Source of the DNA: Alphaproteobacteria bacterium
GTDB taxonomy: Bacteria > Pseudomonadota > Alphaproteobacteria > UBA828
Length of the DNA: 64,000 nt
Assembly: GCA_965237415.1 (NCBI GenBank)
Contig: CBDEFM010000002.1
Location: forward strand, 2,112,001 to 2,176,000
Reading direction: 5' to 3'
Both the position numbers and the translations under genes were made by a program. Shown here in pieces: positions 28,925 through 33,399 of this stretch. The notes beneath the pieces were generated by a model that was not told the origin of the DNA, made no database searches, and saw nothing but the letters and a program-made list of their open reading frames with translations. How positions within the stretch are numbered: the first letter of the stretch is position 1; the number at the start of each line of letters is the position of its first letter.

Positions 28925-29021
28925 GCCGCCGGGTCGAGGTCGAGCGCGCCCTCGCCGAGGACCCCGGCGCCTCATCGTGACGGCCGACTGACGGCTCCCT
29001 GAAACCGGGACCGAGGCGCCC

Positions 29022-29684
29022 TCACCGCCCCGAGCGAGGCGGGCCGCAGCATCCGTCCAGGATTACCCGGGTTATGGTCTCCGCCGCAGCGTCGAAGTCC
29101 CTGCGTGTGAGCCGTCGCCTCTCCAGCACGTCCGCCGCCAGCGCCCCGAAGTCCGCGTAGAACTCGGTCGCGGACCACAGCATGATGAAAAAGTGGCGGG
29201 GGTCTACCGGCGCCATCTGCCCCCGGCGGATCCATTCCTCCACCACGTGGGCGCGCTGGATGGTTACGTCGCGAATGTGCTGGCGCTGACGCCGCTCCAG
29301 AAGCTGCGCACCACGCAAGATCTCGTTGGCAAAAAGGCGCGAGTCGGCGGCATGGCGGCGGGAATACTCGAGCTTGGCACGGATATAGGCGGCGATGGCG
29401 TCGCGTGGCTCGCGCTCGGGCACAATATGCTCGAAGGCAAGATCCCAGCCCTCGATCAGCCGCTCGATCAGGGCCGTGTAGATGCTCCCCTTGGTCGGGA
29501 AGTAGTAGTAGACGTTGGCCTTGGGCAGGCCGCTCGCCTGCGCGATTTCCTTCATATGGGTGCCGTGGAAGCTCTTGTCGGCGAAGAGACCGACGGCGGC
29601 GTTTAAGATACGCTCCTTGTTCCTAGCCCGAATTCTCGGCTCCGGCCCGTCATTTCCCGCCTCTGCCCGCATCGTCTTGGTCAT
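29022..29684 (-). CDS. TetR family regulator, RutR-like
   Basis: TetR HTH; YIRAKLE.SR, SRLFANE, VDPRH...LWSAT.FYADF (RutR C-terminal domain). Confidence 0.88.
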   Translation of the reverse strand: MTKTMRAEAGNDGPEPRIRARNKERILNAAVGLFADKSFHGTHMKEIAQASGLPKANVYYYFPTKGSIYTALIERLIEGWDLAFEHIVPEREPRDAIAAYIRAKLEYSRRHAADSRLFANEILRGAQLLERRQRQHIRDVTIQRAHVVEEWIRRGQMAPVDPRHFFIMLWSATEFYADFGALAADVLERRRLTRRDFDAAAETITRVILDGCCGPPRSGR

Positions 29685-29768
29685 GCTCTTCCCTCGCGTC
29701 GCAGGGGACTTCCTGCGTATGCCCGTAACGCATGCAGTCTAGCCGCTTGGTCTGGCCGGGTCGCGCTG

Positions 29769-29885
29769 GTGCAGTTGGCGACTCGATTGCTCGTCGAGGA
29801 AGCGCTGGAGGGTGAGAGCCGGGACGTCCTCGGCCGAGAGCACTACGAGCATGGCGCGTCGCCGGGCCAGAGCTGGCGCAACAGT
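29769..29885 (+). mobile_element. IS256 transposase N-terminal remnant
   Basis: LLVEEALEGE...LGREHYEH...WRN. Confidence 0.55.
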
Positions 29886-29908
29886 GTGCCCATGGGTTGT
29901 CTGCGTAC

Positions 29909-30050
29909 TGAGGTGGCCTCGCCTTTTCGGACAACCTGGCGGCTGAGCCAATGTGTATTCCGGTTGATTCTCAGGCCGCCAAGAATCCACTTGATGCGCT
30001 CTTCCTGTCGGTGCTGCTGCGCCTATGGAGATGTAGGCAAGCGCGACGAT
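29909..30050 (-). mobile_element. IS3 right-end remnant related to 12220-12370
   Basis: TGAGGTGGCCTCGCCTTTTCGGACA...TCAGGCCGCC...GGAGATGT.GGCAAG similarity. Confidence 0.75.
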
Positions 30051-30432
30051 GCCCGCATGAGCCTCGGATTCGAACGCCTGCGCATCGCTGTCTGCGCCGA
30101 GCTGCTCGCCCATTCCAGCTGCGCGGGTGCAGCGGGCCATTTGGATCTCTGCACAAGGGCCACGCAGCGTCAGTTTGCGCCACAGCAGCGCTTGTACTTG
30201 CGCCCGGAAGGTCCAGGCGGCGAGCCTCGCCAAACTCTCGGCTCCCGGTGCTCTCTTCCGTCGGGAGAGCCCGGCAGCCCCGCCTCGACCACCCCCTGAT
30301 GCCGCCACGCGCGTGTCCGGTGACACCGCGCCGAACCCGAACCATCCACCAGCCACCGCGCGGCCACCGCCGTCAGCCAATGACCGCCCATCTGAAGACC
30401 GCACTCGAGAACACGCACCGCTACCCCCCTCG

Positions 30433-30468
30433 TTTGACTCGCGATAACTGTTGTTATCGCGAGTCAAA
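30433..30468 (+). other. lox-like recombination site A
   Basis: TTTGACTCGCGATA-ACTGTTGT-TATCGCGAGTCAAA (14-8-14). Confidence 0.85.
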
Positions 30469-30504
30469 CTCCGGGCCGTATTCCACGGACCTGGAGGCTT
30501 CCCC

Positions 30505-31476
30505 ATGCTTGTCGACACCCTGAACCGCCCGCCGCAGGCGAGTGGCGGCCACACTTGCCGGGACCCGTTCGACGCCTGCGCCTGCGCCGCGCGCGGGGCG
30601 CTGAGTGCCAACACCGAGCGGGCCGTGCGCTCAGACCTCGCCATCTACGCCGCCTGGTGCAGGGAACGCGGGGTGCCGGCGCTGCCCGCGAGCGCCGAGA
30701 CCATCGCCGCGTTCGTCGACGCCAGGGCGAAGCTCCGTGCCCCCGCGACGGTGCGCCGCTACGTGGCGAGCATCGCGGCTGCGCACCGGGCGCTGGGGTC
30801 GGGAAAGACGGCGAGAAGCGAGCCGGTGCGACGGGCGCTGCAGCGCATGCACCGGCGAAAGGGACGGCGTCAGGCGCAGGCCAAGGGGCTCACCGGGGCG
30901 CTGCGCCAGCGCCTTCTCGACGCCACGAGCGATGGCCTCATCGACGCGCGCAACCGCGCGCTGCTCGCCGTCGCCTACGACACGCTGCTGCGCCGCGGCG
31001 AGCTCGTCGCGCTGCAAGTGACGGATATCGTTGAGGAAGTGGACGGCGCGGCGACGGTGCTGGTGCGCCGCGCCAAGGCCGACCCCGAAGGCCGCGGCGC
31101 GACGGTGTACCTGGCGCGCGACAGCGTGGCGCTGGTGCGCGAGTGGCTGGAGCGAAGCGGGGTTATCGAAGGCAGGCTCTTCCGCTCGCTGTGCCGGGGC
31201 GCGGTCGGCAAGGGGCTCGACGCGAGCCAGGTCCCGCGCATCTTCAAGGCCATGGCCGAGCGCGCCGGATTGCCTGGCGAGGTCGTCGAGCGCATCTCCG
31301 GGCACAGCACGCGGGTCGGGGCGGCGCAGGACATGGTCGCAGGCGGCATCGGCATGGCGGCCATCCTGCACGCAGGAAGGTGGAAGACGTCGGCGATGGT
31401 CAACCGCTACGGCGAGCGGCTGCTGGCGCGGCGAAGCGGCGCCGCGCAGCTCGCCCGTCTGCAGCATCGCGAGTAG
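30505..31476 (+). CDS. Cre-like tyrosine recombinase
   Basis: SAM-like N domain; LLRRGEL, KAD, SGHSTRVGAAQDM, GRWK...MVNRY (Cre-type Trp/Tyr); GGAGG RBS. Confidence 0.9.
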   Translation: MLVDTLNRPPQASGGHTCRDPFDACACAARGALSANTERAVRSDLAIYAAWCRERGVPALPASAETIAAFVDARAKLRAPATVRRYVASIAAAHRALGSGKTARSEPVRRALQRMHRRKGRRQAQAKGLTGALRQRLLDATSDGLIDARNRALLAVAYDTLLRRGELVALQVTDIVEEVDGAATVLVRRAKADPEGRGATVYLARDSVALVREWLERSGVIEGRLFRSLCRGAVGKGLDASQVPRIFKAMAERAGLPGEVVERISGHSTRVGAAQDMVAGGIGMAAILHAGRWKTSAMVNRYGERLLARRSGAAQLARLQHRE

Positions 31477-31577
31477 GTGCGCGGTGGTGTATCATTCGGC
31501 GTATCCTCGGCTGGCGGCTGGCGCCTGCCGCCGTCCGACCGCCGCGAATCGCTCCAGAGGGCGGATTTCCCGAAAAT

Positions 31578-31593
31578 GTTATCGCGAGTCAAA
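31578..31593 (+). other. lox-like half site
   Basis: GTTATCGCGAGTCAAA, identical to the right arm of sites A/B; left arm absent. Confidence 0.7.
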
Positions 31594-31777
31594 ATCGCCG
31601 ACCCGGCGCATGGCCGGCATCGGGCGTCGGATGCGCGGGCAACGCGCACCGCGCGCCTGGAAAGACGAAAGCTGTCTTGCAATCAACAGCTTGCAGCATG
31701 TTGCGGAACGCTCTACGGTTGCCGGGTCGCGACTGGGCGGCTTCCGGGTCGCCCGTCGAAAACGGCGAACTTGACAG

Positions 31778-31813
31778 TTTGACTCGCGATAACAACAGTT
31801 ATCGCGAGTCAAA
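31778..31813 (-). other. lox-like recombination site B (inverted relative to A)
   Basis: TTTGACTCGCGATA-ACAACAGT-TATCGCGAGTCAAA; exact reverse complement of site A. Confidence 0.85.
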
Positions 31814-32597
31814 TGCCCCCGCGGGCGCCGTGCCTCCACGGCCTGAGAATCGATCCAACCGGCTGATTTCGTGTGCGTTTCTCGACCCGGAGCGGCCGCT
31901 CCGGCCCGCGCGGCGCACGCACCGCCTCCTGCGCCTTCCCAGGAAGCCCGTCCGCCGCCGATCTGCCCTTGCAGGCACGCCCTTTCGGTCCGCGGCCCGC
32001 ACGGCGCGCGGCGCCCGAACCAGGGCCGCGCCGACGCCACGCACCCGCACGCTTCAGGGCCGGGCGTTGAGCTCCAGGCCGCGCCCTGCCGGGCACCGAC
32101 CGGCGTGATGGGACCAATCCAGGATGAACGGGGGAGGTGAGCACCGGGGGCCGCGCGTGCCACGAGTAGTTGGCCGCGCTTGGCGACGATGCCTGCGGAT
32201 CTGCCGGGGAAGCGCGCGAGTGCCGGCTGCATGTTCTCCATCGATCCATATCGGGCAGAAGCCCCGTCCACCGGACCGCTCCTGAACGTTTGACTGTCGC
32301 CCGCACGCGTCGTTCGGCGGGTGTTTCTGGAGCCGAGGCGACACCAGACACGCAGAGCGCGCCGCATGCAGAACCGCATTCAATTCATTAGGGACACTCG
32401 GGCACTTTGAAAAATGCCCACCGCAACAATCTTCATGCCGGAGCGACATGAGGACGTGCCCATCCGCATCGATACCGACCAGCGGCGTCTCCGACCCGCT
32501 TGTCACGGAAGAGACCACCGTCCGCCGCTCCCGGTGCGCAGCCTTTCTGTTATAAGCTCATGAACCGACGGTTCCCCTCACCACCGGAGGCAGGTTC

Positions 32598-32888
32598 ATG
32601 GCCGACAGTTCCGCGACCAGGATCGACGAACGCGCCCTGACGAAGGGTCAGCGTCGCAAGCTCAATGCCTTGAGGAAGTCGGTGGGAGACGAGATCGGTG
32701 CGCAGGCCTTCGCCGCCTGGCTCTCCTCGCAATCGGCGTCAGCGGCGGGCCCGACGGACGAGAACGCCACGCTGATCGTCGACACTCTTTGGCCTCTCGT
32801 GCAGCAAGGCACTCTGGCGATCCCGCGCGGCGGCTACCTGCTCAGACGCGGACGCGGACGCATCATCGTCGAGCGCGCAAGCTCATAG
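32598..32888 (+). CDS. Conserved small hypothetical protein (paralog of 10866-11150)
   Basis: GGAGG RBS; strong similarity to 10866-11150. Confidence 0.75.
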   Translation: MADSSATRIDERALTKGQRRKLNALRKSVGDEIGAQAFAAWLSSQSASAAGPTDENATLIVDTLWPLVQQGTLAIPRGGYLLRRGRGRIIVERASS

Positions 32889-33399
32889 AGCGTCCCACAA
32901 CGGCGCCGGCTTCATGACGGCCGCCGCCTCTCAAGCTCCGTCGGATGCGCGCTCTTTCCGGTGTCTGAGATCGACGGGACAAGAGCACCGCACCCCCGTC
33001 CATCTCGCTGGGGACCGAGCCGGAGAATCTCACCGCGCCGGTCGCAGCTGCTCACTCAGCCGACAGTCGCCATCCCTTCATGGCGCGCCACGCCGCCGCA
33101 GTGCTCCAGAGTACGGCGGCCGACAAGTGCCTCCCGTTCCTTCGCGTCTCCCCACCTCGACGCCTCGCAGCGACGCTGCTGCCAAGAGCCGTCGGACACG
33201 CGCGCGACTTCGATTCGCTGTGTTTGCCAATAGTTTTCCGAACGTGGACACGTCCGGGCACGGCAAATCTACGCTCCCCCGAATCACGCCCATTCCGCGC
33301 GGCCCAATCCATCACCTGCTCGGCCAGCTAACCGCTGACCGTCAGGTTACGCATCAGAGAGCACTTGTAACCCACTCATATCCTCCGCACGACATAGCC

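Follow-up and report, generated by a model that had tools for sequence, protein, structure and literature searches.

Positions 30433-31813 of a 64,000-nucleotide stretch of alphaproteobacterial DNA (contig CBDEFM010000002.1 of assembly GCA_965237415.1; this whole stretch is called the window here) hold a gene for a tyrosine recombinase of the Cre type, P0001, enclosed by two lox-like sites in inverted orientation. Comparison with related loci indicates that this region is probably (about 0.68) a self-contained inversion cassette acted on by its own recombinase, that is, a Hin-like switch run by a Cre-type enzyme. In the mechanism we propose, the recombinase, a protein of 323 amino acids (aa), would bind as dimers to the two sites bounding its own gene, and recombination would flip the 1.3-kb segment between the crossover points. 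Inversion and not excision is expected because the asymmetric 4-bp centres of the sites are inverted. The outer arms of the sites would remain with the flanks, while the inner arms, the gene, a lone half-site and a TTGACA box would turn round. A putative outward promoter, with TTGACA at the inner arm of the right-hand (R) site and a -10 element on the crossover centre, would be rebuilt unchanged after inversion, because the centre and the outer arms are the same at both ends, and would be directed at the right flank in one orientation and at the left flank in the opposite one. The left flank in most family members is a giant secreted surface-protein gene, so that the cassette would work as a phase-variation switch, and the half-site is a possible accessory or operator site making the two ends unequal. 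Both the flipping of the window copy and the direction of ON and OFF are inferred.

The recombinase and its two inverted sites

The open reading frame (ORF) of P0001 is intact, from the ATG at 30505 to 31476. Its Pfam matches comprise the PF00589 Phage_integrase catalytic domain (E = 1.3e-17) and a weak SAM-like N-terminal domain, with no arm-binding domain among them, as a preliminary description made from the letters of the window had stated. The best solved relative is Cre (E = 3.6e-22, residues 28-307 of the query on 32-329 of Cre), while XerD reaches only 1.1e-06. In the alignment with Cre, R163, K191, H267, R270, W293 and Y302 fall on R173, K201, H289, R292, W315 and Y324, which are all six catalytic residues, and all six are invariant across 16 diverse family members. 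The Cre-type motifs pointed out in the preliminary description are thereby recovered, since GHSTRVG, Trp293 and Tyr302 match Cre H289/R292, W315 and Y324. Among phage records the top matches are P1 Cre (28.9% identity) and D6 Dre (28.8%), with about 85% of the protein covered. None of the curated NCBIfam models reaches its cut-off for P0001 (Xer models, 47-55 bits vs cut-offs near 300; fimbrial invertase model PRK09870, 18 bits vs a cut-off of 221). Because similarity to Cre and Dre exceeds similarity to Xer proteins and integrases, and because the catalytic residues align, the sequence supports the assignment of P0001 as a Cre-type tyrosine recombinase. An AlphaFold2 model built on a 16-sequence alignment was too poor for use (mean predicted local distance difference test score 60.5, predicted template modelling score 0.36).

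The features of the cassette are as follows.

30433-30468, no strand: site A (left-hand or L site), lox-like, a 16-nt arm, TGTT and a 16-nt arm; adjoins the 5' end of the recombinase gene, with the same position and core in 31/35 related loci
30493-30497, plus strand: GGAGG ribosome-binding site, 7 nt ahead of the ATG, by direct reading
30505-31476, plus strand: Cre-type tyrosine recombinase gene P0001, 323 aa, by translation, PF00589 and the Cre alignment
31578-31593, minus strand: lone half-site, one arm, by arm search; co-varying counterpart in 17/31 loci
31771-31776, plus strand: TTGACA, a -35-like box facing outward and abutting the inner arm of site B; position conserved in 21/31 loci
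31794-31799, plus strand: AACAGT, a weak candidate -10 hexamer 17 nt past TTGACA, made of the crossover centre and 2 nt of the outer arm
31778-31813, no strand: site B (R site), inverted copy with centre AACA, by inverted-repeat and arm searches

Site A consists of the arm TTTGACTCGCGATAAC, the centre TGTT and the arm GTTATCGCGAGTCAAA, and site B has the same arms around AACA and is therefore an inverted copy; the two identical 36-bp sites flanking a single gene in opposite orientations, on which the preliminary description was built, are both where it had placed them. The two sites pair as a 38-nt inverted repeat with 100% complementarity (30433-30470 with 31776-31813), the arms of which are separated by 1305 nt. 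The sites had been described as having perfect 14-bp arms and an asymmetric 8-bp spacer. The arms are perfect, and their extent had been understated: all four are perfect across 16 nt (TTTGACTCGCGATAAC and its complement). The asymmetry of the 8-bp spacer is confined to its central 4 bp, which set the polarity of the site, its two outer pairs being symmetric. The site can be read as 16-4-16 or, equivalently, as 14-8-14. Site A ends 36 nt upstream of the ATG, in agreement with the distance given previously, and site B lies 301 nt past the end of the gene. The lone half-site, also reported before, is an exact single arm that follows the stop codon by 105 nt and precedes site B by 184 nt. In the whole window the 16-nt arm occurs five times at up to 3 mismatches, against 0.45 expected, and five occurrences were reached in 0 of 100 shuffles.

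Conservation of the layout and exchange at the sites

The protein search gave 2744 matches among 8000 scored candidates, of which the best 120 each share at least 74% identity with P0001 and are nearly all 323 aa long, several of them sharing a contig. A scan of species-representative genomes yielded 32 loci in metagenome-assembled genomes (MAGs), at 62-89% identity and with up to 5 copies per MAG. After one 61-residue fragment (L039) was left out, the 31 external loci and the four copies of the host genome made up a set of 35 loci. The MAGs of this set belong to at least five phyla, their labels being Gammaproteobacteria, Alphaproteobacteria (among them Defluviicoccus, Rhodobacterales and a Rhodospirillaceae 'Spongia' bin), Vicinamibacterales, Longimicrobiales and Latescibacterota.

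A core match, defined as GATAAC-NNNN-GTTATC with up to 2 changes, flanks the gene on both sides in 31 of the 35 loci. The four exceptions are a locus at a contig end (L013), one with a 5'-truncated gene (L014), one with the upstream site only (L032) and one without any site (L030). The 4-nt centres are exact inverted copies of each other in 30/31 loci, L011 being the exception. The arms sort into clade-specific types, among them TTTGAC-, ATTGCGC-, TTTTATGCGC- and GCTCCTGATA-types, which track the protein tree, so that sites and protein co-vary. The lone half-site is found 96-138 nt past the stop codon in 17/31 loci, always on the same strand and co-varying with the arms; an 18th match, in L020, is a second L site.

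The host genome itself carries four full cassettes and two C-terminal remnants (tblastn; the three further full genes are at 86%, 70% and 70% identity). Each of the four full genes has inverted palindromic sites of its own on either side, with the same layout in all copies, and the arms differ by copy: TTTGAC... in the window, TTTGGC... in the copy on contig C1, and ATTGCGCTCGATAAC (ATTGCGC..) in the two 70% copies. The arm pattern with one or two changes is also found elsewhere in the host genome. In a genome-wide scan with the generic core, full sites were restricted to the four cassettes (8), a remnant (1) and a degenerate copy (1); other core matches lack matching arms and look like chance matches, and the reversed genome gave 0 matches. 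Homologues that lack the sites, or a generic palindrome scattered independently of the gene, had been named beforehand as observations that would count against a recombinase-target pair; instead, the sites occur in 31/35 loci, and full sites occur only in cassettes or remnants. One remnant (L050, G000:C2:2247122-2249632) consists of the 3' end of the gene with the half-site, about 2 kb of unrelated DNA and the last 100 bp with site B.

The layout has a limit within the wider family. Among JGI/ENA metagenome contigs the flanking pair was found in 18 of 80 loci (scoring at least 28 bits), all 18 being at least 59% identical to the query, and was absent from the loci of at most 56% identity, many of which lie on short contigs. 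Homologues on Methylobacterium plasmids (about 50% identity) also gave no flanking inverted pair, and one of them carries a single palindrome directly ahead of the gene. Because of these two groups, the two-site layout appears, from sequence comparison, to mark a clade nested among single-site, plasmid-type relatives of Cre.

An exchange at the sites can be followed in two loci of one Rhodobacterales MAG, L020 and L024. Their inner 1941 bp are 96.7% identical and have the same orientation relative to the gene. The left flank of L020 corresponds to the reversed right flank of L024 (94.6% over 646 bp), and the right flank of L020 to the reversed left flank of L024 (80.9% over 867 bp), with the breakpoints inside the site cores (about 19-20 bp). 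The sites of L024 have arms of types Q/Q and P/P and those of L020 are hybrids, P/Q and Q/P, with the inner arms going with the gene and the outer arms with the flanks. Because the flanks are swapped and reversed and the junction arms are hybrid, this pair reads as a natural inversion, with the footprint expected from a crossover in the site centre. Comparative evidence (the pair of sites in 31/35 loci, the inverted centres in 30/31, co-variation, and L020/L024) supports the earlier proposal that a Cre-type recombinase inverts the segment enclosed by its cognate lox-like sites.

Both L020 (2855-2920) and L024 (2700-2765) have two L-type sites in tandem, 47 bp apart. Their inner segment is longer (1.94 kb, with about 830 bp after the gene) and may hold extra cargo. 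In a genome of the host genus (G003:C1:651335-656139), two family genes lie on one strand about 3 kb apart, and cassettes spaced so closely could allow larger rearrangements. Apparent orientation variants relative to a sensor kinase gene were also seen (L033, L035-L038 and L082 on one side; L078-L081 and L088 on the other), and were rejected as evidence for inversion because L078, L079 and L088 have no detectable sites.

The window locus is contained in 16 public sequencing runs, all available as Logan contigs and with no RNA run listed among them. The four compared with it consist of short contigs ending at the sites, with no strand-changing joint, and because of this contig structure the result is neutral on inversion. 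The loose contig ends, at about 30431 and 31812-31817, continue into different flanking sequences, and one of these matches the flank of the C1 copy.

Giant neighbouring genes and a putative outward promoter

Outside the L site, we looked for a long outward ORF with coding-type GC content at third codon positions, opening within 700 nt of the site. Such an ORF is present in 27/31 loci, and most leave the 2.9-kb flank at more than 900 aa. The giant proteins of the host genome (3066 and 2700 aa) have SWM_repeat, fn3 and Calx-beta domains, and those scanned in other phyla have fn3, cadherin and cadherin-like domains; their signal peptides begin roughly 100-560 nt from the site. L020, the locus in the inverted state, is the only one in which a giant ORF starts at the R site, the end with TTGACA. 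An outward ORF is also present on the R side in 12/31 loci, and those scanned or read encode a hybrid sensor kinase/regulator, a LysR-like protein, a leucine-rich repeat protein and a STAND-type NTPase.

A common short N-terminal motif after the signal peptide was observed in the giant proteins of the host genome (L060 34-9234 and L061 68-8170, on G000 C1 and C2) and in those of the left flanks of L010, L021, L024, L025 and L035, which come from MAGs labelled as different phyla. The shared motif suggests that giant surface proteins of a single family are linked to the switch.

The -35-like box of the putative promoter, TTGACA, lies directly inside the inner arm of the R site. A box matching TTGACA in at least 5 of 6 positions stands at this exact place in 21/31 loci and is offset by one base in 3 more, and at the mirror position of the L site it occurs in 0/31 loci. 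The candidate -10 element, 17 nt past TTGACA, is NACAGT or a relative of it: AACAGT in the window, TACAGT in 5 loci and TACAAT in one. Compared with TATAAT, it matches 3/6 positions in the window, and among the 31 loci 5/6 in 1, 4/6 in 7, 3/6 in 18 and 2/6 in 5. From its sequence and position we infer that TTGACA-N17-NACAGT is a promoter; that the cassette acts by toggling it has, in our estimate, a little less than an even chance of being right.

A perfect 18-bp palindrome, CCGGAGCGGCCGCTCCGG, lies at 31887-31904 of the window, 74 bp outside site B; in related clades another palindrome, GC-rich and of different sequence, stands about 170 bp beyond the R site. The window palindrome could stop outward transcripts in the orientation present here. 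A consensus scan of 29600-32700 gave two terminator-like sites vs 1.8 expected.

The window copy is an intact orphan of this switch: its gene is intact, its sites are perfect, and the giant gene is absent alongside. The neighbours are a TetR gene about 750 bp to the left and a 96-aa ORF about 785 bp to the right, both pointing away. No ORF of at least 600 aa lies within 14 kb of the copy, and tblastn with the two giant proteins of the genome found no remnant of them in the window. Three of the 31 loci are orphans in this sense (the window copy, p3 and L034). About 190 bp of the left flank of the window copy recur together with a site in another genome of the same class (L062 4355-4398; G029:C1, about 4407857-4408084). 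That site is solitary, has arms of hybrid clade types and no recombinase gene within 4.5 kb, and may be the scar of recombination between two cassettes.

Several observations weigh against an inversion switch. As to the window copy, it has no long outward gene on either side, so a switch function is not evident there, and of the features expected of an inverton, inverted repeats recognised by a recombinase are present and a regulated gene directly outside a repeat is missing. Its inversion has also gone unobserved, in public data made up of short assembled contigs that break at the sites. In the family at large, an all-against-all comparison of 115 loci gave one clean pair with both orientations, and all 27 loci with a left-hand giant gene share one orientation, so that flipping is rare, or one state dominates the assemblies, or the flanks are fixed. 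Homologous recombination across the cores, which are identical over 20 bp, might also have produced the breakpoints of L020/L024, and in L078-L081 and L088 (60-64% identity) the sites are not detectable. As to the promoter, scanning 29600-32700 for the consensus gave 0 promoter-like sites. The -10 candidate is a weak one, so that TTGACA may, instead of a promoter element, be an extended site for protein binding, and the leaders of the giant genes (roughly 100-560 nt) have room for promoters of their own.

Alternative explanations, mobility and known systems

The cassette might instead be a selfish mobile element like an insertion sequence (IS), with the sites as its terminal inverted repeats, the recombinase as its transposase, and the association with giant genes a matter of target preference or hitch-hiking; we think this unlikely. 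In its favour, the cassette is multi-copy (4 full and 2 remnants in the host genome, up to 5 in one MAG), and 83-89% identical proteins occur in Gammaproteobacteria and Vicinamibacterales MAGs. Within the host genus the distribution is patchy, the family being present in 6 of 21 genomes and the window subtype in the host genome alone. Homology between the window and the C1 copy (86%) stops within 4 bp of the outer site edges, beginning 4 bp before site A and ending at the last base of site B; the comparisons of L009 with the window and of L009 with C1 behave likewise. Orphans (window, p3) and the solitary hybrid site elsewhere point to turnover. However, no direct repeats that could be target-site duplications were found flanking any of the four copies in the host genome, and these copies are old (86% and about 75% nucleotide identity) and not recent transposition products. 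Searches of 30 relatives for the window copy with its flanks, and of 20 same-genus genomes for the C1 copy with its flanks, gave gene-family and repeat matches alone, and no syntenic site, empty or occupied. Furthermore, the chemistry of a tyrosine recombinase on inverted sites leads to inversion, not excision, and in several lineages homology runs on 0.2-2.5 kb past the sites, so that the spreading unit there is larger than the cassette.

Mobility is in any case compatible with an inversion switch, as a double crossover (cassette exchange) could carry a switch cassette from one locus to another. On the basis of the patchy distribution, the relatives in other phyla, the homology that stops at the sites, and the orphans, remnants and solitary site, sequence comparisons show that the family undergoes turnover and horizontal spread. 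Recombinase-mediated exchange of segments between site-bearing loci would, as a speculation, fit both sets of mobility facts. A wider reading can be put forward only tentatively, as it is possible but less probable than its opposite: the recombinase, both sites, the half-site and the outward promoter would form a portable phase-variation module of 1.1-1.4 kb, which spreads across phyla sharing a habitat and inserts ahead of giant adhesin genes, probably via cassette exchange at its own sites, and its natural variants would be a library of mutually orthogonal recombinase-site pairs.

It is very unlikely that the palindromes are mainly operators and the protein an autoregulator or DNA-binding protein with little or no present recombination. 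The positions of site A, 36 nt before the ATG, and of site B, overlapping the candidate outward promoter, would suit operators, the conserved lone half-site is unable to recombine, and nearly all loci are in one orientation. This reading is opposed by the six catalytic residues, which do not vary in the 16 diverse members, by the exchange at the sites of L020 and L024, and by the asymmetric and exactly inverted centres of 30/31 loci, which matter for recombination and not for simple binding.

Least probable, and very unlikely, is an ordinary Cre/loxP-type resolution or integration system left by a plasmid or prophage, the second inverted site being incidental. Cre and Dre, both from P1-like phages, are the closest of the characterised proteins, and the homologues of about 50% identity are on Methylobacterium plasmids, one with its single palindrome just upstream. 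But the inverted two-site layout is conserved in 31/35 loci, so that the second site is not incidental, and dimer resolution is impossible with inverted sites. The window copy, moreover, lies deep in its contig (2.14 Mb into 4.0 Mb), near genes for a deaminase, a glyoxalase, TetR and trypsin/Sel1, and none of the five scanned neighbours is a phage or plasmid gene. A hairpin-telomere (protelomerase-like) function was dropped, as the centre is asymmetric, the protein has no extra domains, and cutting at both ends would break the chromosome.

The inversion cassette can be compared with several known systems. In the accessible part of Jelicic et al. (PMC10250229), membership of the Cre-type class rests on residues equivalent to Cre R173, K201, H289, R292, W315 and Y324, and target sites are sought no more than 1 kb from the gene, as 13-15-bp palindromes interrupted by an 8-bp gap, a rule, as given there, that the window locus would satisfy. 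The locus has the six catalytic residues, the similarity to Cre and Dre, the two-domain build of 300-400 aa and the lox-like target near the gene; it departs from the class in that two inverted sites on a 4.0-Mb contig take the place of a single site used on a phage or plasmid for resolution or cyclisation. A further trait of the class is recombination of the predicted site unaided by host factors, for which the support here is comparative, from the exchange between L020 and L024. With Cre/loxP, Dre/rox, Vika/vox, Nigri/nox, Panto/pox and the candidates of Jelicic et al. (2023), the cassette shares a two-domain enzyme (about 320-345 aa) that has no arm-binding domain, the catalytic hexad with its Trp, and symmetric half-sites around a short asymmetric centre near the gene. 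For each known member, as far as the accessible parts of the sources go, a palindrome search led to one predicted native site close to the gene, and the settings are P1-like phages or plasmids (PMC3553980, PMC4957104, PMC10250229). In contrast, the cassette has two inverted sites enclosing the gene, a chromosomal location, an extra half-site and an outward -35 box. Its arms are perfect over 16 nt with only 4 bp asymmetric, and its product would be an inversion and not resolution or cyclisation.

In the H segment of Salmonella, on which Hin acts at hix sites, a site, the recombinase gene, an outward promoter and an inverted site are followed by a gene for a surface structure. The layout of the cassette is the same, with the enzyme encoded inside the segment it flips and the promoter facing out of the far end. 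Hin, however, belongs to the serine recombinases and depends on an enhancer and on Fis, while the enzyme of the cassette is a Cre-type tyrosine recombinase with no sequence relationship to Hin. At fimS of E. coli, the tyrosine recombinases FimB and FimE invert a promoter element and so turn an adhesin ON or OFF. Similarly, IpuA and IpuB are tyrosine recombinases acting on ipuS, an invertible promoter-bearing element in E. coli, according to the accessible part of the source (PMC6083910). The fim and ipuS systems differ from the cassette in that their recombinases, of the fimbrial-invertase group, are (largely) encoded outside elements of about 0.3 kb with short inverted repeats.

XerCD pdif modules carry no recombinase. 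Recombinase in trio (RIT) elements have three recombinase genes in about 3.5 kb, as described in the accessible part of PMC3414803. Both resemble the cassette as discrete multi-copy units that carry tyrosine recombinases or are acted on by them, with inverted repeats or sites at their ends, no target duplications and an unproven mode of mobility. A single Cre-type gene with symmetric lox-like full sites on either side is found in neither. The two-site layout is not described in the accessible parts of two papers on tyrosine-recombinase classification (PMC3414803, PMC8138268), and in the open-access papers searched, supplements excluded, we found no description of the family, of a natural inverton of the Cre type or of phase variation in sponge-associated symbionts. 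About 500 predicted recombinase/site pairs are reported in PMC10250229, whose supplementary list, lying outside its accessible part, may include members of the family. The principle of promoter inversion by a tyrosine recombinase ahead of adhesin genes is known, and the variant here is a natural inversion cassette run by a Cre-type enzyme.

While Cre-type enzymes are known in nature for resolution or cyclisation of phages and plasmids, a large clade of them appears here to run chromosomal inversion switches ahead of genes for giant surface proteins with fn3, cadherin and Calx-beta domains. If true, a device passed on horizontally would control phase-variable giant adhesins in symbiont communities; the host bacteria are uncultivated, span at least five phyla and, going by some record titles, may be associated with sponges. 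In the accessible text of Jelicic et al. (PMC10250229), finding the native target site is the main obstacle to new Cre-like tools. This family gives the target twice per locus, co-varying with the protein over dozens of variants and with arms longer than those of loxP, so that candidate orthogonal pairs could be read directly from sequence.

Two further features were observed close to the window copy. A repeat of about 139 nt (29907-30045) has many copies in related genomes (for example eight in G029 and several in G008 and G013), and an Rfam search of 29000-33200, which includes it, gave 0 matches at E up to 1. The 96-aa ORF to the right (32598-32888, plus strand) has no Pfam match; its DNA is found again at several places in the host genome and in almost every genome of the genus, at about 73-78% identity, and it appears to be a member of a multi-copy family of small genes.

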